This document shows, piece by piece, positions 10,272 to 63,520 of a DNA stretch of 64,000 bases. Origin of the DNA: an uncultured Thermoanaerobaculia bacterium (lineage in GTDB: Bacteria > Acidobacteriota > Thermoanaerobaculia > Thermoanaerobaculales > Sulfomarinibacteraceae); NCBI GenBank assembly GCA_964565045.1, contig CAZMED010000001.1, positions 169 through 64,168 of the forward strand, in the 5' to 3' direction. Position 1 is the stretch's first letter. The number at the start of each line of letters is the position of its first letter. Position numbers and translations under genes: made by a program. The notes under the pieces are model-generated. The model did no database searches and was not told the DNA's origin. It was given only the letters and a program-made list of their open reading frames with translations.

Positions 10272-10834
10272 TCGGACGCCTCGAGGGTCGGCTGCACCGG
10301 GTCGGTCTCGGCACGGTGCTGATCGACGCCGGCGGCGTCGGATACCAGGTGGCGACGACCCTGCGAGCGCTGCAGGACGCCGCCGACGGCGACCGGGTGG
10401 TGCTCTGGATCCACACCCAGGTGCGTGACGATGCCATCGTCCTCTTCGGCTTCCCGGAGCGCGCGGAGCTCGACGCCTTCGAGAAGCTGATCGCCGTGGC
10501 CGGGGTCGGCCCGCGGACCGCGCTCGGCGTGCTGTCGGCGATGACCGCGCCGGAGCTCGCCGAAGCGGTAGGTCGGGGGGACCTGGCGAGGCTGCAGCGC
10601 AGCCCGGGAGTCGGGCGCAAGACCGCGGAGCGCATCGTGCTCGAGCTCAAGGACCGGCTCGGTCCGGCGGCTGCCTCGAGCGGCGACCTCCGGGAAGACG
10701 CCGCCTCGGCGCTGATCAACCTCGGCTACAGCCAGCGCGACGCGGCGCGGGCGGTGGAGGCTGTGTGGTCCGAGGCCGGCGAGCGCGAGGTCGGCGAGAT
10801 CCTGCGGCTCGCGCTGCGGCGGCTCATGAAGTAG
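10268..10834 (+). CDS. ruvA: Holliday junction DNA helicase subunit RuvA
   Basis: MIGRLEGRLHRVGLGTVLIDAGGVGYQV... with HhH motifs (GVGPRTA, GVGRKTAERIVLELK). Its start overlaps the ppiD stop (ATGA). Confidence 0.9.
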   Translation: MIGRLEGRLHRVGLGTVLIDAGGVGYQVATTLRALQDAADGDRVVLWIHTQVRDDAIVLFGFPERAELDAFEKLIAVAGVGPRTALGVLSAMTAPELAEAVGRGDLARLQRSPGVGRKTAERIVLELKDRLGPAAASSGDLREDAASALINLGYSQRDAARAVEAVWSEAGEREVGEILRLALRRLMK

Positions 10835-14012: not shown

Positions 14013-15002
14013 GTGGATTTTCTCGAAACGATCGAGGAGCGTGCGTCCGCCGTCGGCGGCCGCGTCGTCCTCGCCGAAGGGCACGATGCCCGCATCGTCG
14101 AGGCGGCGTCCGAGTTGGTTTCCCGACAGCTGTGCGAGGTCACGGTGCTGTGTCCCTCCGCGAGCCGGCAGGCCGCCCACGAGAAGCTGGAGGCATCCGG
14201 CATCGAGGTCGCGGACCCGGCGACCGATGAACGCCGGGAGGTGCTCGCGCAGTACCTCTTGGAACGCCGCAAGGGCAAGGGCCTGACGTTGGAGCAGGCG
14301 CGATCGGCGATCGAGGACCCCCTCTACTTCGCCTCGCTCCTGGTCGCCACCGGTGCCGCCGACGCCTCGGTCGGCGGCGCGGTGCGCACCACCGCCGACA
14401 CGGTGCGCGCGGCCCTGCACTGCATCGGCGCCGCAGAGGGCCTGCGGACGGTGTCCTCGGCCTTCATCATGGTCCACCCGGATCCCTCCTGGGGGGACGG
14501 GGGCGTGATGGTGTTCGCCGACTGTGCGGTGCTGCCGGATCCCGACCCCGTGCAGCTGGCCGAGATCGCGGTCTCCGCCGCCGCCACCTTCCGCTCCATC
14601 GTCGGCGGCGAGCCCCGGGTCGCGATGCTCTCGTTCTCCACCAAGGGCTCGGCGACGCATGCCCTGGTCGACAAGGTCACGGCCGCGTGCGCCGAGCTCG
14701 AGCGGCGCAAGCCCGGGTTCGCCTTCGACGGCGAGCTCCAGCTCGACGCCGCGTTGATTCCCGGCATCGGCGAACGCAAGGCCCCGGGCTCCGCCGTCGC
14801 GGGGCGGGCCAACGTGCTCGTCTTCCCCGATCTCAACGCCGGCAACATCACCTACAAGGCGGCCGAGCGCCTCGGCGGGGCGCGGGCGTTGGGGCCGCTC
14901 ATGCAGGGCCTCGCCAAGCCGGCCAACGATCTCAGCCGCGGCTGCTCCGCGGGCGACGTGGTGCAGACCAGCCTCCTCAGCCTGCTGCAGGCGCGGGGCT
15001 GA
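14013..15002 (+). CDS. pta: Phosphate acetyltransferase
   Basis: RVVLAEGHDARIVEAA..., SVGGAVRTTADTVRAAL, and C-terminal ANDLSRGCS. GTG 14013 is preceded by GGGGAGGAG; an alternative in-frame ATG lies at 13965. Confidence 0.85.
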   Translation: MDFLETIEERASAVGGRVVLAEGHDARIVEAASELVSRQLCEVTVLCPSASRQAAHEKLEASGIEVADPATDERREVLAQYLLERRKGKGLTLEQARSAIEDPLYFASLLVATGAADASVGGAVRTTADTVRAALHCIGAAEGLRTVSSAFIMVHPDPSWGDGGVMVFADCAVLPDPDPVQLAEIAVSAAATFRSIVGGEPRVAMLSFSTKGSATHALVDKVTAACAELERRKPGFAFDGELQLDAALIPGIGERKAPGSAVAGRANVLVFPDLNAGNITYKAAERLGGARALGPLMQGLAKPANDLSRGCSAGDVVQTSLLSLLQARG

Positions 15003-15006
15003 CGGC

Positions 15007-16305
15007 ATGAGGGTCCTGGTCCTCGGCTCGGGCGCGCGCGAGCACGCGATCGTTCATGCGCTCCGCCGCTCGCCGGGTGTCGCCGCCGTCTTCGCCGCGC
15101 CCGGCAACCCCGGGATCGCCCGCGCCGCCGATTGTCTGCCGGTCTCGGCCGACGACCTGCCGAGCGTCGCCGAGGCGGCCGCGGACCTCAAGATCGACGT
15201 CACCATCGTCGGCCCCGAGCTGCCGCTGGCGCTCGGCATCGGCGACGAGTTCGCCCACCGGGGCCTGCGCCTCTTCGGGCCGCGCCGGGACGCCGCCGCC
15301 CTCGAGTCGAGCAAGGTCTTCGCCAAGGAGTTCTGCCGCCGTCACGACATCCCGACCGCCGACGGACGATGCGTGCGGTCGCAGGACGAGGCGGTGGCCG
15401 CGGCCCGCGAGCTCGGCCTGCCGGTGGTCTTCAAGGCCGACGGGCTGGCGGCCGGCAAGGGCGTGTTGATCGTGCGCAACGCCGACGACCTCGAGCGTGC
15501 TGTCGATGTTTTCTTCGTGCAGCGCCGCTTCGGCGACGCTGCCGAGCGGGTCCTCGTCGAGGAGTGTCTGGAGGGCGACGAGGTGTCGTACATGGTGATC
15601 ACGGATGGCACGCGCGTGCTGCCCATTGCCACCTCCCACGACTACAAGCGAGCGCGCGACAACGATGAAGGCTCCAACACCGGCGGCATGGGGGCGCACT
15701 CACCGGCCCTGGTCATCCCACCAGGCACCAGCCGCCTGATCCTCGACACGGTCGTCAAACCGACCATCGCGGGCATGGCGGCGGAGGGGCGGGAGTACCG
15801 CGGGGTGCTGTATGCCGGGTTGATGATGACCTCAGGAGGTCCCCGCGTGCTGGAGTTCAACTGCCGCCTCGGCGATCCGGAGACTCAGGCCATCTTCCTC
15901 CGCCTCGAAGACAACATCGCCACCGTGGCCCGCGATGCCGCCGACGGTGCGCTGCAGACCGCGAGCATGAAGTGGCGCAAGGAAGCGGTCGCCTGCGTCG
16001 TCCTCGCCGCCGAGGGCTACCCGGGCAGCCCGCGGCGCGGCGACGAGATCACCGGCATCGACGACGCGATGGCGCTGGCCGGGGTCACCGTCTACCACGC
16101 CGGCACCCGCACCGGCGACGACGACCGCCTGCTGACCTCCGGCGGCCGGGTGCTCTCGGTGTGCGGCCGCGGGCCGACCCTCGAGGAGGCCCTGGAGTCG
16201 GCCTACGGCGGCGTGTCCAAGATCCACTTCGAGGGCATGTGGTACCGCTCGGACATCGGGCGCGACACCCTGCGGACCCTGGGGGCCTCCAATGAGCGCG
16301 CCTGA
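15007..16305 (+). CDS. purD: Phosphoribosylamine-glycine ligase
   Basis: MRVLVLGSGAREHAI...APGNPGIA..., an ATP-grasp core, and GTRTGDDDRLLTSGGRVL. Confidence 0.95.
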   Translation: MRVLVLGSGAREHAIVHALRRSPGVAAVFAAPGNPGIARAADCLPVSADDLPSVAEAAADLKIDVTIVGPELPLALGIGDEFAHRGLRLFGPRRDAAALESSKVFAKEFCRRHDIPTADGRCVRSQDEAVAAARELGLPVVFKADGLAAGKGVLIVRNADDLERAVDVFFVQRRFGDAAERVLVEECLEGDEVSYMVITDGTRVLPIATSHDYKRARDNDEGSNTGGMGAHSPALVIPPGTSRLILDTVVKPTIAGMAAEGREYRGVLYAGLMMTSGGPRVLEFNCRLGDPETQAIFLRLEDNIATVARDAADGALQTASMKWRKEAVACVVLAAEGYPGSPRRGDEITGIDDAMALAGVTVYHAGTRTGDDDRLLTSGGRVLSVCGRGPTLEEALESAYGGVSKIHFEGMWYRSDIGRDTLRTLGASNERA

Positions 16306-16810
16306 GGTCCTCATCCTGATGGGATCGGGCAGCGACTGGAAGCACCTCCAGGGTGCGGTCGCGGTTCTGCGCGAGCTCGGCGTGAGCTGCCTTGCGCGCG
16401 TGACCTCGGCCCACCGGACCCCGGAACGGACGGTCGAGATCGTGCGCGCCGCCGAGGCGGAAGGCTGCCGGGTCTTCATCTGCGCCGCCGGGATGGCCGC
16501 GCATCTCGCCGGCGTCGTTGCCGCCCACACCCTGCGACCGGTCCTCGGCGTCCCGCTGCCGGGCGGGGTCCTCGACGGCGTCGACGCCTTGCTCGCGACG
16601 GTGCAGATGCCCTCCGGCATCCCGGTGGCGACCTTCGCGGTCGGCCCCGCGGGCGCCAAGAACGCTGCCTACTTCGCCGCAGCCATCGTTGCCGGCAGCC
16701 GCCCCGAGGTGGCCGACGCATTGTCCGAGGCGCGCCGCGCGGGCCGCGACAAGGTCGTCGAGAGCGACCGCGATGTGGCTTCCGCATCGGGCGGCGGAGA
16801 CCCGACCTGA
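16292..16810 (+). CDS. purE: 5-(carboxyamino)imidazole ribonucleotide mutase
   Basis: VLILMGSGSDW..., SAHRTP, and AGMAAHLAGVVAA. Confidence 0.92.
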   Translation: MSAPEVLILMGSGSDWKHLQGAVAVLRELGVSCLARVTSAHRTPERTVEIVRAAEAEGCRVFICAAGMAAHLAGVVAAHTLRPVLGVPLPGGVLDGVDALLATVQMPSGIPVATFAVGPAGAKNAAYFAAAIVAGSRPEVADALSEARRAGRDKVVESDRDVASASGGGDPT

Positions 16811-17505
16811 TGTTGGAGATCGTCCCGTGGGCGGTCGTGCCGGTGGAGGACGACTGGGTCCCGGTGATGGTCGACCCCGACCTGCCGCCGCTCGCCTGCC
16901 ACACCGGCGACGTCCGCTACCACCACGGCGAGTCGATCGTTGTCGAGACGCCGGACGGAAGCTTTCTCGGCCGGGTGACGGCGTTCTCACCTCCGTTTTT
17001 GAAGAAGCCGCGGCGCCCGGCCGCACGGGTGGTGCGCAGCGCGACGCCCGAGGACGAGAAGCGGCACCTGGATGGGAGCCATCTCGAGCGCGAGATCGAG
17101 CGTTTTTTGAGGCGGCGCACGCGCGAGCTCGAGCTCGAACTGCACCCCTTCAAGGTGCGGCTGCCGTTGTCGGGCCGCAAGGCGGTCATCTACTTCTCGG
17201 CCGAAAAGAGGATCGACTACCGGCCGCTGCAACGCGATCTCGGCCGCCGCTTCAGGCGGCGGATCGAGATGCGCTCGCTCGGCGTTCGCGACGGCGCGAG
17301 GTTGTGCGGCGGCCTCGGACCGTGCGGGCGCTGCCTGTGCTGCACGACCTTCATGGACCGCTTCCACTCGGTCACCGTGCGGATGGCCAAGCGGCAGAAC
17401 CTGAGCCTCAACCCGAGCAAGATCTCGGGTCTCTGCGGCCGCCTCATGTGCTGCTTGTCGCACGAGGTCGACCAGTACCCCGACGGGTCGCGCGGCCGGC
17501 ACTGA
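16810..17505 (+). CDS. PSP1 C-terminal domain protein (YaaT/RicT-like)
   Basis: GRKAVIYFSAEKRIDYRPLQRDL...IEMRSLGVRDGARLCGGLGPCGRCLCCTTF...SKISGLCGRLMCCLSHE (Cys cluster). The ATG overlaps the purE TGA. Confidence 0.8.
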   Translation: MLEIVPWAVVPVEDDWVPVMVDPDLPPLACHTGDVRYHHGESIVVETPDGSFLGRVTAFSPPFLKKPRRPAARVVRSATPEDEKRHLDGSHLEREIERFLRRRTRELELELHPFKVRLPLSGRKAVIYFSAEKRIDYRPLQRDLGRRFRRRIEMRSLGVRDGARLCGGLGPCGRCLCCTTFMDRFHSVTVRMAKRQNLSLNPSKISGLCGRLMCCLSHEVDQYPDGSRGRH

Positions 17506-17633
17506 GCAGCGCCCCCGCCCCTCTCGTCGAGGAAGACAGGCAGCCGCATTTCTGATAACCTGTTCCCCAGAACCTGAAGACTTCATGCTTCCGGATAACT
17601 TCGCCGCACAGCATGGGCCGCGGGGAGAGTTTC

Positions 17634-17972
17634 ATGTCCGATCGAAAGCTGATACGTCCCTCGATGAACGAGTTGATGGACAAGTACCCGAACCGTTCCA
17701 CCGGCCGCCGCAAACAGGCGCCGGCGGAGCAGACGAATGCCGAGAGCTTCTACTATCTCAAGCAGATGCAGAGTCGCACCGCGATGGTCGTGGTGCTGAC
17801 CGACGGCACCGAGCTGCGAGGCTGGATCGAGTGGTACGACAAGACCTGCATCAAGCTCAACCGCGGGGACGCGCCCAATCTGCTGCTCTTCAAACACTCG
17901 ATCAAGTTCATGTTCAAGGAAGAGGAGCTGCGCACCCGCCGCCGGCGGCGCGCCGCCGCCAGCGAACGCTGA
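17634..17972 (+). CDS. Sm-fold, Hfq-like RNA-binding protein with N-terminal extension and Arg-rich tail
   Basis: The core [44 protein letters not shown] parallels Hfq [48 protein letters not shown] lies 8 nt upstream of ATG 17634; an alternative ATG is at 17613. Confidence 0.6.
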
Positions 17973-18029
17973 TCCTCAGCCGGAAGCTCACGCGCCGGAT
18001 TCGCGACGCCTCCCGAACCGGGTGCCGAA

Positions 18030-18965
18030 TCAAAGGTACTTGAGCGTCTCGCTGGCGGTTGCCGCCTCGCTCCCATCGGGGGCGAGCTCGAGGTAGATCT
18101 CGAGGTGCTTCCTGGCGCCTTCCATGTCGCCCCGCCTGAGGAGCAGCATGCCGTACTCGAAGTGGCAGAGCGCGAACTCCGGGTCCGACGCGATGCACTG
18201 CTCGAGCAGCGGCTGCGCACTCTCGTCGTCGAGCTTGTTGAGGAACACAGCGGCGCTGTTGTAGAGCAGGGCCGGATCGTCCGGATTGAGCTCCTTGTAG
18301 CGGGCCATGAACTCGCTGTGGGCGGCCTCGTCGCCGAGCTCGCCGGCCGCGTTGGCGGCGATCGCCAGGCAGTCGACCGACTCGTCGTCGATTGCCAGGC
18401 AGCGACGGGCGGCCGCGAGGGCCTCCTCGGGCCGGCCGAGATCGAGGTTGAGGTCCGCCACTGCGGTCACCGCGGGCAGCAGACCGGGCACCGCCGCCTC
18501 CGCCTCCTCGAACTTCGCCAGCGCGCCTTCTTTGTCGCCGGCCTGGTAGAGCCTCCGCGCCTCGCCGATCTCCTTGTAGCCGGGTTGATCCAGGATCTCG
18601 GCGGTGGTGGCAGCCTGCGCCTCCTGGATCGAGGCGAGGGTGAACTCGAAAAGCGCGTCGGTGGAGCCGACAGCGACCTTGAACGGACGCTCCTGCGCCT
18701 GGTAACCCTTGGCTTCGACGTGCATCATGTAACGCCGGGTGGCATCGAGGATCAGGACCTTGAAGGTGCCTTTCTTGTCGGTTTTCACGACCTTTTCGAA
18801 GGCCGCGACGTCGGTGCTGGTGATCGTGACCACGGCATCGGCGATGGGCTGACCGTTGCTGTCGGTCACGCGCCCGGAGATCCGCGCCTGCGAGGCGGCG
18901 AAGGCGCCGGCAGCCTGGAGGGCGATCAGGGCGGTCGCGAGGACCGTGATGGTACGGATGCGCAT
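18030..18965 (-). CDS. Secreted carboxypeptidase-regulatory-like domain + TPR repeat protein
   Basis: Signal peptide MRIRTITVLATALIALQAAGAFA and a CarboxypepD_reg-type segment ISGRVTDSNGQPIADAVVTITS...KKGTFKV, followed by TPR-like repeats. Confidence 0.7.
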   Translation of the reverse strand: MRIRTITVLATALIALQAAGAFAASQARISGRVTDSNGQPIADAVVTITSTDVAAFEKVVKTDKKGTFKVLILDATRRYMMHVEAKGYQAQERPFKVAVGSTDALFEFTLASIQEAQAATTAEILDQPGYKEIGEARRLYQAGDKEGALAKFEEAEAAVPGLLPAVTAVADLNLDLGRPEEALAAARRCLAIDDESVDCLAIAANAAGELGDEAAHSEFMARYKELNPDDPALLYNSAAVFLNKLDDESAQPLLEQCIASDPEFALCHFEYGMLLLRRGDMEGARKHLEIYLELAPDGSEAATASETLKYL

Positions 18966-19086
18966 ATCGGCCTCCCCACGCGCAGGAGCGCGTACCGCGA
19001 GCATACCCGGTTTTCCGGGAGGGCTCAACGCCGCGGAGCGGTGCTGGGGCCGGGCGACGACGCGTCGGGCGAACCCGGCCGGACGA

Positions 19087-19989
19087 TCAGCGGAAGGGCA
19101 GCATCGCCTTCATGACGTGGCGGGCGACGGTGGGGTTCTCGCGCAACCGGCGCATGGAGTACGGGTACCAGTCCCGGCCGAAGGGCACGTACACCCGGAG
19201 CCGATGTCCGGCGGCGAGGATGATCCGCCGCAGCTCGGGGTCGACGCCGAGCAGCATCTGGAACTCGTAGCGGTCGCGACCGAGCTGCAGGCGGTCGGCC
19301 GCCGCCATTCCGTGGCACACGAGCAGCGGGTCATGGGTGGCGATGCCGACGTAGCAGCCTTGCCCCAGCAGCTTCTCCACGGCGGCGATGAAGTTGGCGC
19401 GGATGCTGTCGAAGTCCTTCCAGGCGATCGCCCGGGGCTCGCGGTAGATCCCTTTGCAGATCCGGATGTTCGGCCGCAGCGGCAGGAGATCGTTGATGTC
19501 GGGCAGGGTGCGGTGGAGGTAGGCTTGCAGCACCACGCCCACCGCCTGCGGATGGGCCTCGTAGACCCTGCGGTACAGACGCAGCGTTGCGTCCGTGCAG
19601 GTGTGGTCCTCCATGTCGATGCGGACGAAGTTCCCCCGGGCGGCGGCGTCGGCAACGATCGTCTCCACGTGCGCTGCGCACAGCTCCTCGTCGATCTTGA
19701 GCCCGAGCATGGTCGGCTTGATGGAGACGTTGGCGTCGAGGCCTTCCGACTCGATGCGCGCCAGCAGGGCCAGGTACTGCTCGACCGCCTCCGCCGCCTT
19801 GGCGCGGTCCCGCACCTCTTCGCCGAGGACGTCGACGGTGCCCCTGGCGCCCTCGTCGTTCATCGCCCGCAGGGTGCGCACGGCGTCGTCCATCGTCTCG
19901 CCGGCAACGTAACGCTGCGCGACCCGGCCGACGATGGGTTTCGGAATCAGGGGCATCCCGTGCTTGACCAGCGAGTCGAACAGGCTCAT
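19087..19989 (-). CDS. Proline dehydrogenase (monofunctional PutA-like)
   Basis: MSLFDSLVKHGMPLIPKPIVGRVAQRYVAGET...DVLGEEV...NVSIKPTMLG...RICKGIY...YEFQMLLGV...YVPFG. A GAGGAG RBS is present. The ATG overlaps the stop of the upstream comF-like gene. Confidence 0.85.
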   Translation of the reverse strand: MSLFDSLVKHGMPLIPKPIVGRVAQRYVAGETMDDAVRTLRAMNDEGARGTVDVLGEEVRDRAKAAEAVEQYLALLARIESEGLDANVSIKPTMLGLKIDEELCAAHVETIVADAAARGNFVRIDMEDHTCTDATLRLYRRVYEAHPQAVGVVLQAYLHRTLPDINDLLPLRPNIRICKGIYREPRAIAWKDFDSIRANFIAAVEKLLGQGCYVGIATHDPLLVCHGMAAADRLQLGRDRYEFQMLLGVDPELRRIILAAGHRLRVYVPFGRDWYPYSMRRLRENPTVARHVMKAMLPFR

Positions 19990-20702
19990 GTGATTCTCCT
20001 CGAGTCGGGTGTTCGAGCGAGCACGGCGGCGTACACGACCGCGGCGCCGGCTGTGCGGAGCGCGCCGGCCGCGCGGCGCAGGGTGGCCCCGGTCGTGGTC
20101 ACGTCGTCGACCAGGAGCACCGCCACACCGTGCCGCGGGCCCCGGGCCCGGAAGCTGTGGTGCGGCAGCTGCAGGCGTCGGGCGCGGCTGCCGCCGGTCT
20201 GACGGCCGAGCCCGCGCCTCGCGAGCAGCCGGCGCGCCGGCAGTCCGAGGACGTGCGCGATCTCGTGCGCCAGGAGCTCGGCCGCCGCCCACGGGCGCCG
20301 CAGGCGCCTGAATGGGTGCGAAGGGACCCAGCTCACGACCTCGAGCTCCTCGGCCCAGGGCGCCGAGGCCACGCGGGCCGCCAGGCGCATGCCGAGCGGT
20401 GCCGCGAGGTCGTCGCGTCGGCCGTGCTTGAGCGCCAGCAGGGCGGTCCGGAGAGCGCCGTCGTGCTCGCCCCAGATCGCCGTTCCGGCCTGCGGCGGTG
20501 GCGCCCGCAGGCACTCCAGGCAGGGTTCGAGCGCGTCGTCCGTCGCCCCGCCGCAGCGCGCGCAGATCGTGCCCGGGCGCGGAATCACCGCGGCCCAGCA
20601 GGCTCTGCACAAGCCGCGATCCCGCCCGGCGAGCGGCTGCTCGCAGTGCGGACAGAGACCGGGCACCAAGGCCTCGATGGCGGCCGTCGCCACGCCCCCC
20701 AT
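19986..20702 (-). CDS. comF: ComF-family phosphoribosyltransferase-domain protein
   Basis: N-terminal Cys pairs CPHCEQP...CRACW...CARCGG...CLEC and a PRTase motif VLLVDDVTTTGATL. The start is approximate (ATG complement 20700-20702). Confidence 0.75.
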   Translation of the reverse strand: MGGVATAAIEALVPGLCPHCEQPLAGRDRGLCRACWAAVIPRPGTICARCGGATDDALEPCLECLRAPPPQAGTAIWGEHDGALRTALLALKHGRRDDLAAPLGMRLAARVASAPWAEELEVVSWVPSHPFRRLRRPWAAAELLAHEIAHVLGLPARRLLARRGLGRQTGGSRARRLQLPHHSFRARGPRHGVAVLLVDDVTTTGATLRRAAGALRTAGAAVVYAAVLARTPDSRRIT

Positions 20703-20879
20703 GCTCACGGCGCGTATGGTAACAGAGGAACCCGCCCCCCAGCCGAGCCCTCCGGTGCGGAGCCCGTATACTGGCGTCGTGCGTGCCATCCACCACGAAG
20801 CCGTGGCCACAGCGAAGCCGGAGAGCCGGCTCCGGGCCCCCAACGCGGGCGCCCGCGCCGAGATTGCGGGCTCGTTCTG

Positions 20880-21257
20880 ATGCCGCACCTCATCCTCGAA
20901 CGTGCGGTCGACCCGCGCCGGGTGCTCGAGGAGCTGCCGCGGGAGGTTCGCCGCTGGCGGGCTGCGGTGCTCAAGACGACCGAAGTGTGGAGCCGTTCGG
21001 ACCGTGCCGCGGTGCTGGTCGAGGGCGTGGTCGTCGAGCACTCGCGTCCGCTGCACCCGGTCGCGCTGGTCGGTCTCGGAGGCGAGGAGACCAGCGTCCG
21101 CCTCTGGGACCCGGCGCCGATCGAACGGACGCCGGCAGTCCAGCGTTGGCTGGCGCTGGTGGCCGCCGATCTCAAGGGGCTCGGCGCGGGCGATGCGCGA
21201 ACCACGAACATCGCGGCGGAGATCCTCGAGGGCCTCGAGCTCGGCGCCCCCCGCTGA
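20880..21257 (+). CDS. Hypothetical protein (125 aa)
   Basis: Strong GC3 codon bias in this frame, and the ATG follows an in-frame stop. No family recognised. Confidence 0.5.
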   Translation: MPHLILERAVDPRRVLEELPREVRRWRAAVLKTTEVWSRSDRAAVLVEGVVVEHSRPLHPVALVGLGGEETSVRLWDPAPIERTPAVQRWLALVAADLKGLGAGDARTTNIAAEILEGLELGAPR

Positions 21258-21284
21258 GGCCGCGCGCCGCGGGGAAACCCTCCC

Positions 21285-21869
21285 TCACCGCTTGAGAGCT
21301 TCGTCCACCTCGAGCCGGCGCTCCTGCGCCGACTGCTGGAGGTTCTCGAGTTGGTCGCGGACCCCGTCGGTGGCGAGGCGGGGCCCGGGGTCTCCGGCGG
21401 CCTCGCCGGCGAGCGTCGCGCGCGCCGCGTCGAGCTTGAAACGCGCCCGATCGAGGTGGGCCGCGGAGGGGTTCAGGGCGTACGCCCGGAGCTCACCGGC
21501 CGCGCTGCGCAGCGACACCGCCACGTGCAGGTCGGAGCTCGCCGACGGCGCGACGGCGGCCCAGGACCCCGTCGTCTCGGCGAACACGCGGAGGTCGGCG
21601 AGACGGTCGTCGATGGTGTCGGGGGCCGCCAGCAGCGCCTCGAGGGCTGCGACCATGGAGGCCGCGGCGGTGGGGTCGAACGGTTGTCCGGACGCACCCT
21701 CCTCGCGAAGCCCGTCGGCCATCGTGGCGACTGCGTCGAGGCTGGAGTCCGCGTCCCGGCCGCTCAGGTAGAGCACGTAGCCGGCGGCCACCAGCACCGC
21801 GATCATGAACGCGCCCGAGAATCGCACGCCGCCACCTCCAAGCTTCCAGTATAGCCCGCGGTGTGTCAT
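21285..21869 (-). CDS. Hypothetical membrane-anchored helical protein
   Basis: A single TM (FSGAFMIAVLVAAGYVLYL) followed by an Ala/Leu-rich helical region. Start uncertain (21869 or 21806). Confidence 0.5.
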   Translation of the reverse strand: MTHRGLYWKLGGGGVRFSGAFMIAVLVAAGYVLYLSGRDADSSLDAVATMADGLREEGASGQPFDPTAAASMVAALEALLAAPDTIDDRLADLRVFAETTGSWAAVAPSASSDLHVAVSLRSAAGELRAYALNPSAAHLDRARFKLDAARATLAGEAAGDPGPRLATDGVRDQLENLQQSAQERRLEVDEALKR

Positions 21870-21968
21870 CTGCCGCGGACACTTCATCGAGGCTGCCGTC
21901 CCGCCTTCCCGATTTCCGCTGCCTCGAACGCGGCACGGTCCTTGCTGAAGCTCCCGGCGGAGGATGAC

Positions 21969-22853
21969 ATGCCACGCACGACCCGGCCCCTGGTTTCGGC
22001 CCTCGCCGCGCTCGCGGCGCTCACCCTGGCCCCGACGGCGTCGGCGCAGCTCGCCGCGGACTGGATGGTCCCGGCTTCCGCCCACAATCCCGGCGTCGGT
22101 GGGACGTTCTGGAGGACCGACCTGTCCCTCCACAACCCCCACCAGTACGAGCTCCCGGTGGTCGTGCAGATGTTGCCAAGCGACTCCGAGAACGTGAACG
22201 TCCCGACCCTCGACCTCACCCTGTACCCGTGGGAGACCGTGAACCTGTGGGACGTGCTGGGCGCGGGCGCGTTCGACTTCGAGGGCACGGCGGCGATCCT
22301 CGCTTACGCGGATCCTTCTCTGGACTGTGATCCCATCGAGTCCTGCCACTTCCTGGCGACCTCGCGGACCTACACGCCGGACGGGTCGGGCGCTGGCGAG
22401 TACGGCCTGACCGTTGCCGGCGTCGGCGTCGGCCGCGCCACCGACTGGTCGCACTTCGGCTACGCGGCCGGGATTCTCAACGACGGGGCGTTCTTCCGCT
22501 GCAACGTCGGCGTCGCCTCGTGGACTCCGGAGTGGACCACGGTGCGGGTCGATGTGCAGAGCGCCGAGGGGCAGATCGTGAGTTCGGAGACCTTCGAGCT
22601 CCCGCCATTCGGCCACAGCCAGCGGCGGCTGGCGACCGCAGTCGAGGGCGGCAGCCTCGTCTTCTACCTCGAGGCCGGGCCGGACGATGCGGCCGTCTTC
22701 CCCTATGCCACCGTCATCAACCAGGTGACCGGGGACGCCAGCTTCTTCTTCGCGGAGGCGTCCACCGTCGGCGTCTCGGCGAGCAAGGGGCGAGTTGCCG
22801 CCGGCCGCCCGCCAGTGCCGCGAGCCGGCCCGGCCGTGGCGCTCTCGCGCTGA
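21969..22853 (+). CDS. Secreted hypothetical protein
   Basis: Signal peptide MPRTTRPLVSALAALAALTLAPTASA, then a beta-rich sequence (GGTFWRTDLSLHNP...). GGAGGA lies upstream of ATG 21969. No family name recalled. Confidence 0.6.
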   Translation: MPRTTRPLVSALAALAALTLAPTASAQLAADWMVPASAHNPGVGGTFWRTDLSLHNPHQYELPVVVQMLPSDSENVNVPTLDLTLYPWETVNLWDVLGAGAFDFEGTAAILAYADPSLDCDPIESCHFLATSRTYTPDGSGAGEYGLTVAGVGVGRATDWSHFGYAAGILNDGAFFRCNVGVASWTPEWTTVRVDVQSAEGQIVSSETFELPPFGHSQRRLATAVEGGSLVFYLEAGPDDAAVFPYATVINQVTGDASFFFAEASTVGVSASKGRVAAGRPPVPRAGPAVALSR

Positions 22854-22889
22854 GACGGCGCCGCCCTCGGGAGTGCCGCCTTTCGACGG

Positions 22890-22919
22890 GTGACACCGCG
22901 GACGGGTGGGGTTCATAAT
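22890..22919 (+). promoter_or_regulatory. Putative sigma70-type promoter for the GTPase-kinase fusion gene
   Basis: GTGACA (22890-22895), an 18-nt spacer, then CATAAT (22914-22919), about 25 nt upstream of ATG 22943. Pattern match only. Confidence 0.3.
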
Positions 22920-22942
22920 GGGTACTCCAGGTTCGGAGGCCC

Positions 22943-25114
22943 ATGGTCCAGTTCGACAACCAGAACCGGCAGATCAAGATCAAGATCGTCTTCTACGGAC
23001 CGGCCGTGGGCGGCAAGACGACCTCGCTGCAGCACATCCACCGCATCACCGACCCCGAGCAACGGACCAAGCTCTACTCGCTCAACACGGCCAACGACCG
23101 CACCCTGTTTTTCGATCTGCTGTCGCTGAACCTCGGCCGCATTCGCGACTTCCGTCTCGTGCTCCAAGTCTTCACGGTGCCCGGCCAGGTCCAGTACGAC
23201 GCCACGCGGCGCACCGTGCTCGCGGGCGCGGACGGGGTGGTCTTCGTCGCCGACTCGCAGGCGGCGCAGCGGCAGGCCAACCTCGCCTCGCTGGCCGACC
23301 TGAAGACCAATCTGGCGGCCAACAACCTCGACGCGGCGGCGACCCCGCTGGTCTTCCTGTACAACAAGCGCGATCTCGAGCCGGTGCTCGGCATCGACGC
23401 GATGGACGCCGAGCTCAACCCGGACGGACGGCCCTCCTTCGCCGCCGTGGCGACGCGGGGCGAAGGCGTCCTCGAGGCCTTCACCGCGATCGGCGAGTTG
23501 ACCCTGACGTCGATCGCCGAACGGCTCGGCATCGGCACCAGCCCTCAGGCTGCCGAGCAGCTGCGGCAGCAGATGGCGAGGGCGATGCAGCCCTATCTCG
23601 GCGCCGCGCCCGCCGCGGCTTCGGATGACGTCGAGATCACCCTGCCGGCCGGCCAAGGTGACGAGACCGGGGTGTTCAAGGACCGGGACCTGGTCGCCGA
23701 GGCGGTGCGCTCGAGCCTCGCCGTCACCGATCTCAGCAGCCGCCTCGACCTCGCGCAACGCCAGCTCGAGCGTCGGGTCCGCGAGATGGAGAACATCTCC
23801 GAGTTCGGCCGCGCGGTCAGCAACGAGCGCGATCCGGCGGCCGTGCTCCGCCTCCTCATCACCACCACCATCCGCCTCCTGCAGGTCAAAGGCGCGTCGG
23901 TGCTCGTCCGCCACGACTCGGAAACGCTCCGCGAGGCGGTGCTGCACGGTTTCGAGACCGATCCGCTGATGCGCCACACCGAGCACGACGGCCACCCTCT
24001 CGCAATGGCGCTGCTCGACGCCCGGACCCCATGCCTTCTCGCCCGCGGCCTGGACGACGACACCCAGGCGATGACCCTGATGGCGGTGGAGAACGCCGGC
24101 TTCACGTCGGCCGCGGCGGTGCCCCTTCTGACCCAGGACAAGACGGTGGGACTGCTCGCTGCATACGGCGACAGGGAGCGCCGCGATCTCGACGAGGGAG
24201 ACCTCCAGGCACTCTCCGTTCTTGGCGCCACGGCCGCCATGGGTTACGCCAACGCCATCGCCTGGCGGCAGATGGAGGAGCTCAGCCAGGGCCTCGAGGC
24301 CCAGGTCGCGGAGCGGACCGCCGAGCTCCGCAACACGCTCGCGGAGTCGCGCCGCCTGGCGGCCGACGTGGCCGACAAGAAGGCCCTCCTCGAGAGCGCC
24401 TACCGCGACCTCGCGGCCCTCGACGAGGTCAAGAACCAGCTCATCAACCGACTGTCGCTGGAGTTCCGCACGCCGGTCACCTCGCTCTTCACCGCCGCCA
24501 AGGTCCTCGGCCGCAGCGATCCGGTGCCGCCCGACAAGGCCGCCCGGCTGGTCACCGTCATCCGCGACGAGGCCGAGAAGCTGCTCGAGATGATCGAAAG
24601 CGTTTTCCAGGCCTCGGTGCTCGGCAGCGGCGCCGGCCGGGTGCAGCCCAACCCCGCCCCGGCTCAGGAGCTCTTCCGAAGCGCGATCGCGCCGCTGCGC
24701 GACCTCGCCCGGCAGCGCGGCGTCAAGGTCCAGGTGATGGCTCCGAACGACCTCGAGACCGTCCTGTGCGAACCCGAGTCGATCGAGGCGGCCCTGCGGG
24801 CGGTCATCCGCAACGGCATCGAGTTCAACCACCCGGGCGGCGAGGTCCGGCTCGAGGTGCGGCGGGTGTCCAGGGACGGCAGGCCCTGGCTCCAGCTGCG
24901 GGTGATCGACACCGGGCCCGGCATCCCGGAGGCGGACCTGCCCGAGGTCTGCTCGCCCTTCTGGCAGGGCGACGACGCCGCCGCGGGCAAGCGCTACGGC
25001 ATCGGCCTCGGCCTCACGATCGCCAAGCGGGTGGTCGAGAACCACGGCGGCGAGCTCAGCATCACAAGCGATCAGGGCGAGGGCACGCGGGTGGTTCTGA
25101 CCCTCCCCCAGTAG
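22943..25114 (+). CDS. MglA-like small GTPase fused to a GAF domain and a histidine-kinase-like core (degenerate H-box, intact HATPase_c)
   Basis: aa 1-195 carry MglA blocks (KIVFYGPAVGGKTTSLQHIH, DRTLFFDLL, FTVPGQVQYDATRR, GVVFVADSQ, YNKRD). A GAF-like region spans about aa 283-440. The DHp-like helix reads LINRLSLEFRTPVTSL. HATPase_c motifs are RNGIEFN, DTGPGI, SPFW and GIGLGL. It is a single uninterrupted 723-codon frame with GGAGG before the ATG. Confidence 0.85.
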   Translation: MVQFDNQNRQIKIKIVFYGPAVGGKTTSLQHIHRITDPEQRTKLYSLNTANDRTLFFDLLSLNLGRIRDFRLVLQVFTVPGQVQYDATRRTVLAGADGVVFVADSQAAQRQANLASLADLKTNLAANNLDAAATPLVFLYNKRDLEPVLGIDAMDAELNPDGRPSFAAVATRGEGVLEAFTAIGELTLTSIAERLGIGTSPQAAEQLRQQMARAMQPYLGAAPAAASDDVEITLPAGQGDETGVFKDRDLVAEAVRSSLAVTDLSSRLDLAQRQLERRVREMENISEFGRAVSNERDPAAVLRLLITTTIRLLQVKGASVLVRHDSETLREAVLHGFETDPLMRHTEHDGHPLAMALLDARTPCLLARGLDDDTQAMTLMAVENAGFTSAAAVPLLTQDKTVGLLAAYGDRERRDLDEGDLQALSVLGATAAMGYANAIAWRQMEELSQGLEAQVAERTAELRNTLAESRRLAADVADKKALLESAYRDLAALDEVKNQLINRLSLEFRTPVTSLFTAAKVLGRSDPVPPDKAARLVTVIRDEAEKLLEMIESVFQASVLGSGAGRVQPNPAPAQELFRSAIAPLRDLARQRGVKVQVMAPNDLETVLCEPESIEAALRAVIRNGIEFNHPGGEVRLEVRRVSRDGRPWLQLRVIDTGPGIPEADLPEVCSPFWQGDDAAAGKRYGIGLGLTIAKRVVENHGGELSITSDQGEGTRVVLTLPQ

Positions 25115-45480: not shown

Positions 45481-46215
45481 CTACTGCAGATTGAATCGCA
45501 CCGTGAGGATGTAAAGGACCTCCACCGGCTTGCCGTTGAGCGTGGACGGCTCGAAGCGCCACTTCTGGACGGCGTCGACCGCGGTCTCGGTGAGCCCGAG
45601 CGGCAGGCCGCGCAGGACCTTGACGTTCTGCACCCGCCCGTCCTTGCCGATCGTGCATTCGAGCACGACAACGCCCTGGATCCGCGCCCGACGGGCCGCT
45701 TCCGGGTACACCGGCGAGGGGCCGCTGATCTTGACCGGCTCGGTGATGTTGCCGCCGACCACGAAGCGGACGGGGCCCTCCGGCTCGGGCGGGGGGGGCG
45801 CGTCGGGGACGCCGAGCACCAGGTTGTCGTCGGGCACGAAGTCGATGTTCTCGTCCGGCTGCTCGTCGCGGATCGGCTCGGGCTCGTCCGGCGTCGGATC
45901 GGGGATCGGGACCTTCTGGGTCTTCGGCTTGGGGATCTGCTGCATCTCGCGCCGTGGCGGCTGCTTGAACTTGACCTGCTTGACGACGTAGATCTTGCTC
46001 TTCTTCTCTTTGGCATCCGACAAGCCGCCGGCGAAGGAGGGCCACTGGACGGCGAAGACAATGACGTGGAACACGATCGCAATGCCGAAAGCCCAGCGCG
46101 CGAACTTCCGATCCTGGGTTTCCTCCGCGGCCAGCATTTCGGCCGTGGTCATCGGCATGTCGGAGTCGTCGACCGCGTCCGGCTTGGTCTTCTTGGGCTT
46201 CCCGGCGTCGCTCAT
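45481..46215 (-). CDS. tonB: TonB-family energy transducer
   Basis: TM anchor FARWAFGIAIVFHVIVFAV, a Pro-rich spacer (PPPPEPEGP), and the TonB_C motif YPEAARRARIQGVVVLECTIGKDGRVQNVKVL. GGGAG precedes ATG 46215. Confidence 0.88.
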   Translation of the reverse strand: MSDAGKPKKTKPDAVDDSDMPMTTAEMLAAEETQDRKFARWAFGIAIVFHVIVFAVQWPSFAGGLSDAKEKKSKIYVVKQVKFKQPPRREMQQIPKPKTQKVPIPDPTPDEPEPIRDEQPDENIDFVPDDNLVLGVPDAPPPPEPEGPVRFVVGGNITEPVKISGPSPVYPEAARRARIQGVVVLECTIGKDGRVQNVKVLRGLPLGLTETAVDAVQKWRFEPSTLNGKPVEVLYILTVRFNLQ

Positions 46216-46226
46216 GGCATTCTCCC

Positions 46227-46676
46227 TCACTGGATCCCGAGCATGGACCAGAGGTTCTCGATCTCGCGTCGGGTTGGAATCGAAATCGTCTTGATCTCCA
46301 TGTCGATCTTGTCGGGCGCTTGTCGCAGCTCGTCGAAGACCGTGATCATGTCGCCGTAGGTCGCGTCGGGGTCGGTGCGCAGGATCACCGGCTTGTCCGG
46401 GTTCTGCTTCAGCTTGTCCCCGATGTACGGCAGCATCGCCTCGAAGGACATACCCTGACCGTCGACCTCGATCGCGCCGCCCCGCATGACGTGGACGTCG
46501 ATCGAGTCTTCCTGCTTGATCTCGGGCGTCTGGGTGTCCTCGGGCAGGGCGAAGTCGAGCCCGCGGGTCGCCGAGAACGCCGAGGTGATCATGAAGTAGA
46601 TGATCAGCAGGAACGAGATGTCGGCCATCGATCCGGTGAAGATCTCGGACGGGACTTCCTTCTTCTTTATCTTCAT
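46227..46676 (-). CDS. exbD: Biopolymer transport protein ExbD/TolR (copy 2)
   Basis: Membrane anchor region (ADISFLLIIYFMIT) followed by an ExbD periplasmic domain; 149 aa. Confidence 0.88.
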   Translation of the reverse strand: MKIKKKEVPSEIFTGSMADISFLLIIYFMITSAFSATRGLDFALPEDTQTPEIKQEDSIDVHVMRGGAIEVDGQGMSFEAMLPYIGDKLKQNPDKPVILRTDPDATYGDMITVFDELRQAPDKIDMEIKTISIPTRREIENLWSMLGIQ

Positions 46677-46692
46677 CGTCGTCCCTCCGCCG

Positions 46693-47136
46693 TCAATTGA
46701 CGGTCTTCTGTTCGGACAGGAGGTAGATGAACTTCACCTTCGACTGTTTGAGCGCATCGAGCACCGCGTCGACCCTCTCGTAGGGCACGGCGTCGTCGGC
46801 CTTGATGATGAACTCCTTGTCCGGGTTCTGGGCGACCTCGGTCGAGGCGAAGGTGACGACCTCCTCGTCGGTGCTGACCGGCAGCGACATCTCCTCGCCG
46901 GTCGAGACGCGAACTGTCAACGGCGGGTTGGCATCGGGCGGCGAAATCGAAATCACGGCCGCCTTCTCCGGAACCTTCATCCGCACCCAGGTGTCGGGCA
47001 GGTCCATCTTCGTGCGGTCGACCTCGACCTTGTAAGTGAGGACGAAGAACACGATCAGCAGGAAGACGATGTCCGCCATCGATGCCGTGAAGATCTGCGC
47101 TCCGGTTTTGCGGTCCCTTCCGCGGATGAGTGCCAT
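46693..47136 (-). CDS. exbD: Biopolymer transport protein ExbD/TolR (copy 1)
   Basis: Membrane anchor region (ADIVFLLIVFFVLT) followed by an ExbD periplasmic domain; 147 aa. Confidence 0.88.
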   Translation of the reverse strand: MALIRGRDRKTGAQIFTASMADIVFLLIVFFVLTYKVEVDRTKMDLPDTWVRMKVPEKAAVISISPPDANPPLTVRVSTGEEMSLPVSTDEEVVTFASTEVAQNPDKEFIIKADDAVPYERVDAVLDALKQSKVKFIYLLSEQKTVN

Positions 47137-47150
47137 CGGCGGACTCCCTT

Positions 47151-47807
47151 CTAGGCCTGGCCCTCGCCCCCCTGGGCGTAACGCTGGCTGTCCATCTCGA
47201 CGAAGGTCTCGACGAGCATGTTGGAAGCGGTCTCGATGTCACGCACGAAGCGGGTGATCTTGGTGGTGTACCAGTTGAAGACCAGCTGCGCCGGGATGGC
47301 GATGATGAGACCGGTGGCGGTCGTGATCAGCGCCTCGGAGATGCCGACAGCCACCGCGGCGGGGTTCGTCAGACCCTGCTCGGCGAGGGTGGCGAAGGAC
47401 TTGATCATGCCGGCGACGGTGCCGAGGAAGCCCAGCATGGGGGCCACGTTGGCGGTTGTGGCGAGCACGCCGAGGCGCTTTTCGAGCCGATCGAGCTCGT
47501 ACAGAGCGGCGTTCTCGATGGTCTTCTCGATGTCTTCCCGGGAGTGGCCGTAGCGCAGCAGACCGGCCTTCATGACCGAGGCCACCGGGCTCTTGTTCTG
47601 CTCGCAGACCTTGATCGCCTCTTTGACGTTGCGGTTGACCAGCAGCGCCTTGCGGATCTTGGTCAGAAACTCGTTGACATTGATCTTGGCCTTGGAAAAG
47701 ACAATGAAACGCTCGATTGCTACGGTGGCGGCCAACACCGAGAAAAAGAGCAGCGGGTACATGAAGATCCCACCCTGGCGGAAATACTCTGCAACCTGTC
47801 CAGTCAC
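47151..47807 (-). CDS. exbB: MotA/TolQ/ExbB proton-channel protein
   Basis: GGIFMYPLLFFSVLAATVAIERF and the C-terminal channel helices GLTNPAAVAVGISEALITTATGLIIAIP. GTG start with a GAGGAGG RBS. Confidence 0.9.
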   Translation of the reverse strand: MTGQVAEYFRQGGIFMYPLLFFSVLAATVAIERFIVFSKAKINVNEFLTKIRKALLVNRNVKEAIKVCEQNKSPVASVMKAGLLRYGHSREDIEKTIENAALYELDRLEKRLGVLATTANVAPMLGFLGTVAGMIKSFATLAEQGLTNPAAVAVGISEALITTATGLIIAIPAQLVFNWYTTKITRFVRDIETASNMLVETFVEMDSQRYAQGGEGQA

Positions 47808-47997: not shown

Positions 47998-48489
47998 TCA
48001 ACGAGTTGCCCTGCAGGCTCCGGAGTGAATGTGCGTGAGGGCCACGGCCATCGCGTCGGCGGCATCCACCGGTGGTGTTTCCCGGAGGCTGAGCAGGCGA
48101 ATCACCATGAAGACGACCTGCGGTTTCTCGGCCCGCCCGGTGCCGACGATGGCGGATTTGACCTCGGCAGGGCTGTACGAACGCACGGCGAGCCCGGCGG
48201 CGCCCAGGGCCGCGAGAATCACGCCCCGGCTCTCGGCGAGCGCCAGTCCGGACCGCGGGTTGAGGCCGGAAAACGAGGACTCGACAGCTGCTGTGTCCGG
48301 CGCGAGCTCGGCCAGCAGCGCGCGAAGACGCGCCAAGAGGTCGGCCAGCCGACCGGGCCGGTCCTCGCCGCGCGGCCGGATCACGCCGCTCGCCTCCAGG
48401 CGGTAGCGGTTGCCGACCGCGACCACCAGCGCCCACCCGGTCGCCCGCGAGCCGGGATCGACGCCGAGGACGCGAACGCCGCTGACCAT
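47998..48489 (-). CDS. ruvC: Crossover junction endodeoxyribonuclease RuvC
   Basis: VLGVDPGSRATGWALV..., and the acidic catalytic residues DAADAMAVAL near the C-terminus. Confidence 0.9.
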   Translation of the reverse strand: MVSGVRVLGVDPGSRATGWALVVAVGNRYRLEASGVIRPRGEDRPGRLADLLARLRALLAELAPDTAAVESSFSGLNPRSGLALAESRGVILAALGAAGLAVRSYSPAEVKSAIVGTGRAEKPQVVFMVIRLLSLRETPPVDAADAMAVALTHIHSGACRATR

Positions 48490-48498
48490 GGCGCCCGG

Positions 48499-49248
48499 TC
48501 AGCTCTCCGCCAGCAGCTCGTCGTCGATGTCGAAGTTCGCCCACACGTTCTGCACGTCGTCGTGGTCGTCGAAGGCCTCCATGAGGCGGATCATCTGCTG
48601 CGCCTGTTTGCCTTCGAGCCGGGTCGTGGACGAGGGCTCCATCTCGAACTGCGCGGCTTCGACCATGAGCCCTTCGGCCTCGAGCCGGTCCTTGACCAGG
48701 TGCAGCTCCTCGGGGCTGGTGAAGATCCGGAAGTAGTCCTCGTCGTCGAGGTCGAGGTCCTCCGCACCGGAATCCAGGACCAGCTCCATGACGCGGTCGT
48801 CGTCCAGGTCCTCGGACCGCGGGATGAGGATCAGGCCCTTGCGGGCGAACAACCAGGACACGCAGCCGTTCTCACCCAGGTTGCCGCCGTGCTTGGAGAA
48901 CAGGTGGCGGATCTCCGGCGTGGTGCGGTTGCGGTTGTCGGTGAGCAGCTCGAGCATCACGGCGACGCCGCCGGGACCGTAGCCCTCGAAGCTGATCTCC
49001 TCGTAATTGACCCCGGGAAGCTCGCCGGTGCCGCGCTGGACCGCCCGCTTGATGTTGTCGGCCGGCATGTTGGCGGCCTTGGCCGCGGCCACCGCGGCCC
49101 GCAGGCGGGGGTTGGCGTCCGCGTCGCCTCCCCCCTCCCGCGCCGAGACCGTGATCTCGCGGATGATCTTGGTGAAGATCTTGCCGCGCTTGGCGTCGGC
49201 CCGGCCCTTCTTGTGCTTGATCGTGCTCCACTTGCTGTGGCCCGACAT
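48499..49248 (-). CDS. yebC: YebC/PmpR-family transcriptional regulator
   Basis: MSGHSKWSTIKHKKGRADAKRGKIFTK...; classic yebC-ruvC pairing. Confidence 0.93.
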   Translation of the reverse strand: MSGHSKWSTIKHKKGRADAKRGKIFTKIIREITVSAREGGGDADANPRLRAAVAAAKAANMPADNIKRAVQRGTGELPGVNYEEISFEGYGPGGVAVMLELLTDNRNRTTPEIRHLFSKHGGNLGENGCVSWLFARKGLILIPRSEDLDDDRVMELVLDSGAEDLDLDDEDYFRIFTSPEELHLVKDRLEAEGLMVEAAQFEMEPSSTTRLEGKQAQQMIRLMEAFDDHDDVQNVWANFDIDDELLAES

Positions 49249-62346: not shown

Positions 62347-62355
62347 GCGTCCTCC

Positions 62356-63492: not shown

Positions 63493-63520
63493 CGTCGAAC
63501 CGGCGTCTGATCGCGGTGTG

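Follow-up and report, generated by a model that had tools for sequence, protein, structure and literature searches.

The stretch of DNA analysed here, referred to below as the window, comprises 64,000 nucleotides of contig CAZMED010000001.1 (assembly GCA_964565045.1, positions 169 to 64,168 of the forward strand) from an uncultured Thermoanaerobaculia bacterium of the Sulfomarinibacteraceae. It contains a gene for a protein of 723 residues in which a small GTPase domain of the MglA type is fused to a GAF domain and to the DHp and CA domains of a histidine kinase, with Leu at the position of the phospho-acceptor His (Table 1). Public annotations describe the fusion as “ATP-binding protein” (NCBI) and as “signal transduction histidine kinase / SRP receptor beta” (JGI). 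The frame is intact and its composition strongly coding, with a G+C content at third codon positions (GC3) of 0.93. Pfam recognised four regions: an Arf-like GTPase (weak, residues 10-158), the GAF domain (GAF_2, 4e-08; GAF, 6.8e-08), a HisKA domain just above the cut-off (29.2 bits against 26.9), and a HATPase_c domain (82.5 bits). An AlphaFold2 monomer, with a predicted local distance difference test (pLDDT) score of 71.5 and a predicted template-modelling score of 0.35, is moderate and carries domain-level information only. It comprises the G domain, a linker (221-245), a helix (247-294), the GAF fold, two further helices (418-524 and 530-561) and the CA sandwich. The helix of residues 247-294 may form a coiled coil. 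The helix of residues 418-524 runs unbroken from the GAF domain through Leu506 and constitutes DHp alpha1, while residues 530-561 constitute alpha2.

Table 1 Features of the fusion gene and its immediate neighbours (window coordinates).
Feature	Residues	Position	Strand	Evidence
Conserved upstream gene, 294 residues as called (330-residue ORF from 21861), signal-peptide-like N-terminus		21969..22853	+	Synteny
Whole fusion gene, MglA-GTPase / GAF / DHp (HisKA, His to Leu) / HATPase_c	1-723	22943..25114	+	ORF, Pfam, orthologues
MglA-type small GTPase domain	1-195	22943..23527	+	phmmer, motif columns
Long helix before GAF, after low-confidence linker 221-245	247-294	23681..23824	+	AlphaFold2 secondary structure, pLDDT
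GAF sensor domain	296-433	23828..24241	+	Pfam
DHp domain, HisKA match	497-558	24431..24616	+	Pfam, AlphaFold2 helices
Codon CTG (Leu) at phospho-acceptor position; S505, E507, R509, T510, P511 of H-box kept	506	24458..24460	+	Alignment, codons
HATPase_c (CA) domain	612-722	24776..25108	+	Pfam, column counts
Altered N-box AVIRNGIE, Ala620 for His-activating Asn, Glu627 for phosphate-binding Lys/Arg	620-627	24800..24823	+	PDB alignment, columns
Convergent neighbour, PATAN/DUF4388 protein, 459 residues		25128..26507	-	Pfam PF14332, 5.4e-16

Positions 24437-24505, within the DHp domain, translate to QLINRLSLEFRTPVTSLFTAAKV. When the DHp-CA half of the fusion was searched with phmmer against all PDB chains, Leu506 aligned with the His of MSHEIRTP (7z8n) and of VSHELRTP (WalK; 4u7n/5c93). 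A first-pass annotation of this DNA, made from the sequence alone, had reported Leu in place of the acceptor His and the absence of any His from the DHp region of about 60 residues. Both observations were borne out, the query having no His at all between residues 480 and 570. A search of 5.8 billion protein clusters yielded more than 120 full-length orthologues with intact ORFs (61-97% identity). In a MAFFT alignment of 121 of them, 117 have Leu and 4 have Ser in the His column, and not one has His, which supports the earlier proposal of a pseudo-histidine kinase that is not specific to one strain. Around this column, R503, S505, P511, S514 and L515 do not vary at all, and E/D507, R509 and T510 are likewise retained. 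Across distinct loci the codon of Leu506 is CTC (nine), CTG (three) or CTA (one), and Leu is found in 12 GTDB species representatives. This synonymous variation indicates that Leu is maintained. The His codon of relatives, CAC, lies one step away, and this single nucleotide between CAC and CTC, with nothing further, is what a sequencing error, a strain-specific mutation or neutral decay has in its favour. Against it stand the near-uniformity of Leu in orthologues and species representatives, the synonymous codon turnover, the intact frame with its GC3 of 0.93, and a DHp alpha1 helix that is the most conserved part of the protein. We regard error, strain-specific mutation and a decaying domain as excluded by these comparisons as causes of Leu506, their probability being negligible.

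The fusion might still be an ordinary histidine kinase that uses another His of the helix pair, and some orthologues do have a His at position 487 (Y/H), 523 or 541 (Y/H/R). However, these positions are variable, no helix-pair column has His in more than 43% of the sequences, and 30 of the 121 orthologues, like the query, have none there. The N-box described below also lacks the Asn that activates the His. Such a kinase is therefore very improbable, and the earlier statement that no His occurs in the DHp region agrees with the lack of any other conserved His in the orthologues.

The degree of conservation also argues for a protein still under selection. Mean pairwise identity among the 121 Leu-type orthologues is highest in DHp alpha1 (0.84), followed by the MglA domain (0.82), the CA domain (0.73), the helix of residues 441-495 leading from GAF to DHp (0.72), the GAF domain (0.71), and the linker and the DHp loop with alpha2 (0.66 each). 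To judge from these orthologues, the GTPase motifs, the Mg-binding Asn, the G1 and G2 boxes and the H-box helix (E/D-x-x-T-P) are under strong constraint.

The first-pass annotation called the protein a GTPase-kinase fusion. This label is right, and its first half can be sharpened, because the N-terminal 195 residues align end to end with MglA of Myxococcus xanthus (phmmer, E = 1.5e-50; 5ymx, 6h17), the match to 5ymx covering residues 7-193. MglA of Thermus thermophilus (3t12) is matched with E = 4.7e-43. The hallmarks of the GTPase are the P-loop GPAVGGKTT (G19-T27), DRTLFFD with Arg53/Thr54, T78-V-P-G-Q82 and N141-K-R-D144. They are invariant or nearly so, in at least 120 of the 121 orthologues, except for P-loop position 22 (V/A/I/L). 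MglA is a single domain of about 195 residues, and here the G domain makes up the first 195 of 723 residues. No match to MglB was found in the window or among the ORFs of the loci, although this test, made with an MglB sequence as query, is weak, and no Roadblock family was detected among the 20 window ORFs scanned with Pfam.

The CA domain presents a mixed picture. Asn624, which binds Mg, D656/G658/G660 of G1, F673, and G686/G688/G690 of G2 are invariant in all 121 orthologues. The earlier claim that all ATP-binding boxes are intact thus stands for these elements and fails for the N-box, which reads A620-V-I-R-N624-G-I-E627-F628 against N-x-x-x-N-A-x-K-[YF] in solved kinases. Kinases have Asn, Gln or His at the position equivalent to 620 and Lys or Arg at that equivalent to 627, where the query has Ala and Glu. 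Relatives in the GHKL group that act as Ser kinases or ATPases carry Glu at the former position. In CpxA, the residues corresponding to A620, E627 and F628 are Asn356, Arg363 and Tyr364. In the Michaelis complex of CpxA, Asn356 bridges to the catalytic Glu beside the His, the N356Y substitution abolishes kinase activity, and Arg363 and the hydroxyl of Tyr364 contact the ATP phosphates; a Glu at the position of Asn356 is the general base of GHKL ATPases (PMC3904827). The presence of Ala620 and Glu627 therefore speaks against histidine-kinase chemistry and equally against ATP hydrolysis of the GHKL type, while selection still seems to maintain nucleotide binding in some form, since the adenine, Mg and glycine-loop elements are intact. 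For the CA domain, a role in nucleotide binding or as a scaffold is thus more likely than hydrolysis of ATP or trans-phosphorylation.

An exhaustive HMMER search of 1.84 billion representatives recovered the MglA-(GAF)-DHp-CA architecture in about 45 clusters, and 30 of 40 MglA-fused representatives in this set keep the His. A scan of GTDB species-representative genomes gave 80 loci, from each of which the fusion ORF and its neighbours were extracted. All 80 belong to Acidobacteriota except one metagenome-assembled genome (MAG) labelled Chondromyces (L060). The L060 contig (DATIVB010000579.1, 1-8481, “Chondromyces sp.”) shows 94.3% DNA identity to window positions 14944-23423 over 8.5 kb, and it is probably mis-binned because all the other relatives are Thermoanaerobaculia. 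Relatives at 63-72% identity are MAGs of Thermoanaerobaculales or Sulfomarinibacteraceae.

An outer group of Polarisedimenticolia and Terriglobia (28-33% identity) is canonical in both its H-box (SHEM[KR]TPL) and its N-box (N/Q..N..K), with a gene for a single-domain receiver (REC), confirmed by Pfam, 2-271 nucleotides upstream of the fusion. This suggests that the family descends from a canonical kinase whose gene had a receiver gene beside it. All members from Thermoanaerobaculia (43-72% identity) have the altered N-box A..N..E/D, with or without the His. Therefore, the change of the N-box came first. The Thermoanaerobaculia loci comprise 33 with the His and 27 without, in which it is replaced by Leu (13), Ser (3), Gly (3), Thr (2), Ala (2), Glu (2) or Asn (2). 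His was lost at no fewer than three separate positions of a simple neighbour-joining tree, that is, at least three times. Locus L044 had appeared to be a His-less locus with partner genes and was rejected, since its box had been misplaced by hmmalign and truly reads LLNRIAHELNTPV. In a second His-less clade the Glu and Thr of the H-box have decayed (SEQLNPPV, AAQLKPPV, STSMKDPV) with the helix and the Pro kept, and the His position is variable (E/T/G/N/S/A).

The genes around the fusion changed along with the His. In loci of the Thermoanaerobaculaceae type that bear the His, the operon consists of a conserved upstream gene, a REC-HisKA-HATPase hybrid (REC-HK, 374-384 residues), the fusion, a REC protein (121-132 residues) and RimK. 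Some of these loci have a gene for a GAF-SpoIIE (PP2C) phosphatase of 502 residues (Pfam) between the fusion and REC, and three (L013, L056, L018) have an epimerase and a PATAN gene downstream as well. Of the 28 histidine kinase domains in neighbours at His-bearing loci, 25 have the canonical boxes SHEIRTPL and N..N..K. In the His-bearing sisters nearest to the query (L014-L017 and L026, 50-56% identity), the REC-HK and REC genes are already gone, the upstream flanks of L016 and L017, which are among five His-bearing loci of the inner clade without visible partners, ending early. In L015 a 119-residue ORF (10278-10637, plus strand), which matches only positions 2-98 of 192 of the SpoIIE/PP2C profile, occupies the place of the 502-residue GAF-SpoIIE gene of the sisters. 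It appears to be what is left after decay of the operon, in a lineage where the His persists.

Among 77 non-redundant loci, a REC or histidine kinase neighbour was present in 44 and absent in 6 of those with the His, and was present in none and absent in 27 of those without (Fisher’s exact test: p = 2.5e-15, uncorrected for shared ancestry, the independent evidence being the loss events, at least three in number). The loss of the His thus tracks the absence of REC or histidine kinase neighbours, so that the absence of an adjacent regulator matters for the evolutionary history of the fusion. The simplest reading is stepwise: an altered N-box came first, the partner genes then disappeared, and the His, under weaker selection from that point, was replaced. 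The distribution of residues suggests that after this replacement Leu was fixed and selectively held in the lineage of the query.

The ancestral operon bears on the possibility that the fusion became a phosphotransferase with another substrate, which could be Ser/Thr of a partner or of the fused GTPase, as in anti-sigma-factor GHKL kinases, or the His of a kinase with which it forms a heterodimer. The GAF-SpoIIE gene, being of PP2C type, hints at Ser/Thr phosphorylation, and a canonical REC-HK adjoins the sister proteins. A nucleotide-dependent function under selection is also indicated by the Mg-binding Asn and the G1, F and G2 boxes, which do not vary even where the His is gone and the H-box has decayed. 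However, with Ala620 there is no polar or acidic side chain to activate the nucleophile as in histidine kinases, Glu627 places a negative charge at the triphosphate site, and neither the query locus nor the window contains these SpoIIE and REC-HK genes. On balance such an activity is improbable.

At the query locus, the first-pass annotation had noted that no response regulator is adjacent, and indeed no REC domain was found within about 10 kb of the fusion. The only receiver genes of the window lie farther off in a cluster on the minus strand (61915-63910), composed of REC (143 residues), a REC-HisKA-HATPase hybrid (378 residues) and REC (129 residues). This cluster adjoins a PPDK-like gene (59257-61872), and its hybrid has the same architecture as that in sister loci. 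It was considered as a relocated set of partners and rejected, because its proteins show 27-37% identity to the REC-HK and REC proteins of the sisters, against 43-57% between the fusions of those same sisters and the query, and because its H-box reads AHEINNPL against SHEIRTPL. Its sequences mark it as a paralogous system. Close orthologues of the REC, REC-HK and SpoIIE genes of the sister loci were not found in the 64-kb window.

The conserved upstream gene lies on the same strand as the fusion, 90 nucleotides from it, and matches no Pfam family. A homologue of about 300 residues precedes the fusion or the REC-HK operon in nearly all Thermoanaerobaculia loci (L002-L062). Downstream, a gap of 14 nucleotides separates the fusion from the PATAN gene, which is followed by genes for a RimK-type ATP-grasp protein and a ferritin. 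The PATAN gene adjoins the fusion in 21 of the 27 His-less loci. Regulators of the PatA type pair PATAN with REC. In the PATAN neighbour of the query there is no receiver domain, and the C-terminal 300 residues or so match no family. A link between PATAN genes and the neighbourhoods of MglB has been published (PMC4316618). As a functional partner of the fusion this gene was set aside and kept as a lead only, since in L013 PATAN lies beyond SpoIIE, REC and the epimerase and its adjacency is explicable by deletion. Elsewhere in the window, an ordinary TonB / ExbD / ExbD / ExbB cluster (45481-47807, minus strand) is followed by RuvC (47998-48489) and YebC (48499-49248).

Taken together, these observations suggest that the fusion is a conserved and selected pseudo-histidine kinase that runs no His-Asp phosphorelay and acts as a dimeric scaffold with the GTPase as its output, a reading to which we give a probability of roughly 0.7. 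That no phospho-His relay operates in the fusion is very probable from its sequence. The protein, with its GTPase tied to GAF through a flexible linker and a long helix, would form a homodimer that acts as a regulatory scaffold and has the GTPase as its output. In it, GAF and a nucleotide-occupied CA domain would set the conformation of the long helix from GAF to DHp, and this conformation would control or report the GTP state and the partner binding of the tethered MglA domains.

Several points weigh against the scaffold reading. Nucleotide binding by a CA domain with Glu at a phosphate-contact position is a prediction. Genes for receiver partners could lie in other parts of the genome, or there may be none. 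The neighbour-joining tree carries no support values, and the order in which partner genes were lost before the His is one that we infer, five loci of the inner clade keeping the His without visible partners. The PATAN neighbour is convergent and its adjacency explicable by deletion, so that it provides no evidence of a functional link. Finally, the AlphaFold2 monomer is only moderate and does not inform on domain docking or on the dimer.

Within the scaffold reading, the residual activity of the DHp domain may be of different kinds. The alpha1 and alpha2 sequences of the Leu clade are close to those of His-bearing sisters with partners (ELITRISHELKTPVTSLLTAAKIL against QLINRLSLEFRTPVTSLFTAAKVL). 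The H-box face S-L-E/D-x-R-T-P and the docking residues are kept nearly as in sisters that have receivers, which makes receiver docking the most likely residual activity. In the phosphatase step of HisKA proteins, the Thr/Asn of H-D/E-x-x-T/N activates water, the His only enhances the reaction, and bound nucleotide stimulates it (PMC7005713). We tentatively propose that the Leu clade may have retained docking of a receiver encoded elsewhere, as a sensor similar to DivL or as a phosphatase dependent on Thr510. The DHp-CA module might instead act within the molecule only, as a dimerisation or allosteric hinge between GAF and GTPase without any receiver, the H-box helix being kept for bundle packing, the kink at Pro511 and CA docking. 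This is consistent with the absence of an adjacent REC gene from all 27 His-less loci, with the lack of close orthologues of the sister REC, REC-HK and SpoIIE genes in the window, and with the continuous helix from GAF through Leu506 in the AlphaFold2 model, and a Leu on the side that faces the CA domain could, being hydrophobic, stabilise this domain in a sequestered state. However, it leaves unexplained why the Leu clade kept Thr510 and Glu/Asp507, the receiver-facing catalytic residues, when the second His-less clade let them decay yet kept the helix and the Pro, and we consider a purely intramolecular role a serious though somewhat unlikely rival.

It is also conceivable, though doubtful, that the altered CA domain, with Ala620 and Glu627 and with the Mg-binding Asn and glycine boxes intact, is a nucleotide sensor acting on the fused MglA switch. 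The CA domain would then gate the GTPase cycle or the effector face, in place of a separate GTPase-activating protein of the MglB type or a guanine nucleotide exchange factor. If so, the fusion would be a self-contained ATP/ADP and GTP/GDP switch, a bacterial counterpart of the cross-talk between GTPase and pseudokinase in ROCO/LRRK2, and its His-bearing sisters would offer a natural series from kinase to pseudokinase for dissection.

Few pseudo-histidine kinases are known (DivL and PsmA among them), and their origins are mostly guessed. Here a single syntenic locus provides a graded series: a canonical GTPase-fused kinase with a receiver gene; a kinase with an altered N-box inside a REC-HK / SpoIIE / REC operon; the same kinase with the partner genes lost; and proteins in which the His was replaced, at least three times, either with Leu fixed and the H-box kept or with a variable residue and a decayed H-box. 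This series makes the order in which catalysis, partners and the acceptor residue were lost directly testable. The family also constitutes a covalent link between a polarity GTPase of the MglA type and two-component signalling. To our knowledge, this connection has until now been known only through separate proteins, namely Frz/RomR in Myxococcus and the conservons in Streptomyces. Beyond the kinase fusions, about 70-80 representative clusters (P0183-P0270) begin with an MglA-like domain, and neither the GAF nor the kinase profile fits the 100-600 residues that come after it. MglA fusion proteins seem to form a large, diverse and uncharacterised set. Giant proteins with several kinase or sensor modules also occur, including P0195 (2017 residues, four tandem DHp-CA modules with His in each), P0229 (1565 residues) and P0170 (2829 residues, six GAF domains and then a single kinase core).

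By descent, the fusion is a derivative of a HisKA kinase joined to a GTPase of the MglA family, and its closest functional analogues are the pseudo-histidine kinases DivL and PsmA; on its sequence, it lacks the His that defines histidine kinases. With MglA of M. xanthus and T. thermophilus it shares the P-loop, the intrinsic Arg in DRTLFFD, T-V-P-G-Q in place of DxxGQ, and NKxD. However, MglA is a single-domain protein that works with the GTPase-activating protein MglB, whereas the G domain here is covalently linked to GAF-DHp-CA. A 2014 survey of prokaryotic Ras-like GTPases describes those of the Ras superfamily as single-domain proteins, and a search of it by terms returned no mention of GAF or HATPase and no GTPase-kinase fusion (PMC4316618). 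A literature search by terms likewise found no description of a fusion of MglA with a histidine kinase.

DivL of Caulobacter crescentus resembles the fusion in its DHp-CA region of the HisKA type, in the replacement of the acceptor His in all orthologues and in boxes that are otherwise recognisable, and its chain 4q20 was among the PDB matches of the DHp-CA half (phmmer, E = 1.3e-16). DivL acts without phosphorylation, binding DivK~P on its docking face and signalling in reverse to its N-terminal domains (PMC4211667). It differs in having PAS domains and Tyr550 as the substitute, where the fusion has the MglA GTPase, GAF and Leu, and in that every one of its H, N, G1, F and G2 boxes is reported as retained (PMC4211667), where the fusion has an altered N-box. 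DivL is alphaproteobacterial with DivK as its partner, whereas no partner of the fusion is known, and the loss of the His in the fusion has an origin independent of DivL. PsmA, a hybrid histidine pseudokinase at the Streptomyces polarisome, is likewise a conserved cell-polarity scaffold without the H-box His (PMC12963549). The variable residue at its His position resembles the second His-less clade. Unlike the fusion, which keeps the Mg-binding Asn, G1, G2 and E/D-x-x-T-P with Leu fixed, PsmA has lost the ATP-binding motifs and D/E-x-x-T/N and has no GTPase domain.

In actinobacterial conservons (CvnA kinase, MglB-like CvnB, CvnC, and the MglA-like GTPase CvnD), too, a GTPase of the MglA family is coupled to a protein that resembles a histidine kinase, with no response regulator dedicated to it (PMC4316618). 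Each component is a protein of its own, CvnA sits in the membrane, has a HAMP domain and retains the His module, and the GTPases belong to a different MglA group and phylum. ROCO/LRRK2 proteins combine a Ras-like Roc GTPase and a kinase or pseudokinase in one dimeric polypeptide. The analogy is one of design only, the folds being unrelated: ROCO proteins pair Roc-COR with a protein kinase of the eukaryotic type, whereas the fusion, which has no COR, pairs MglA with a GHKL core. The idea of a pseudokinase is known already, and what is new is the fusion to a GTPase, the fixed Leu within a preserved H-box, and a route to the pseudokinase that can be reconstructed.

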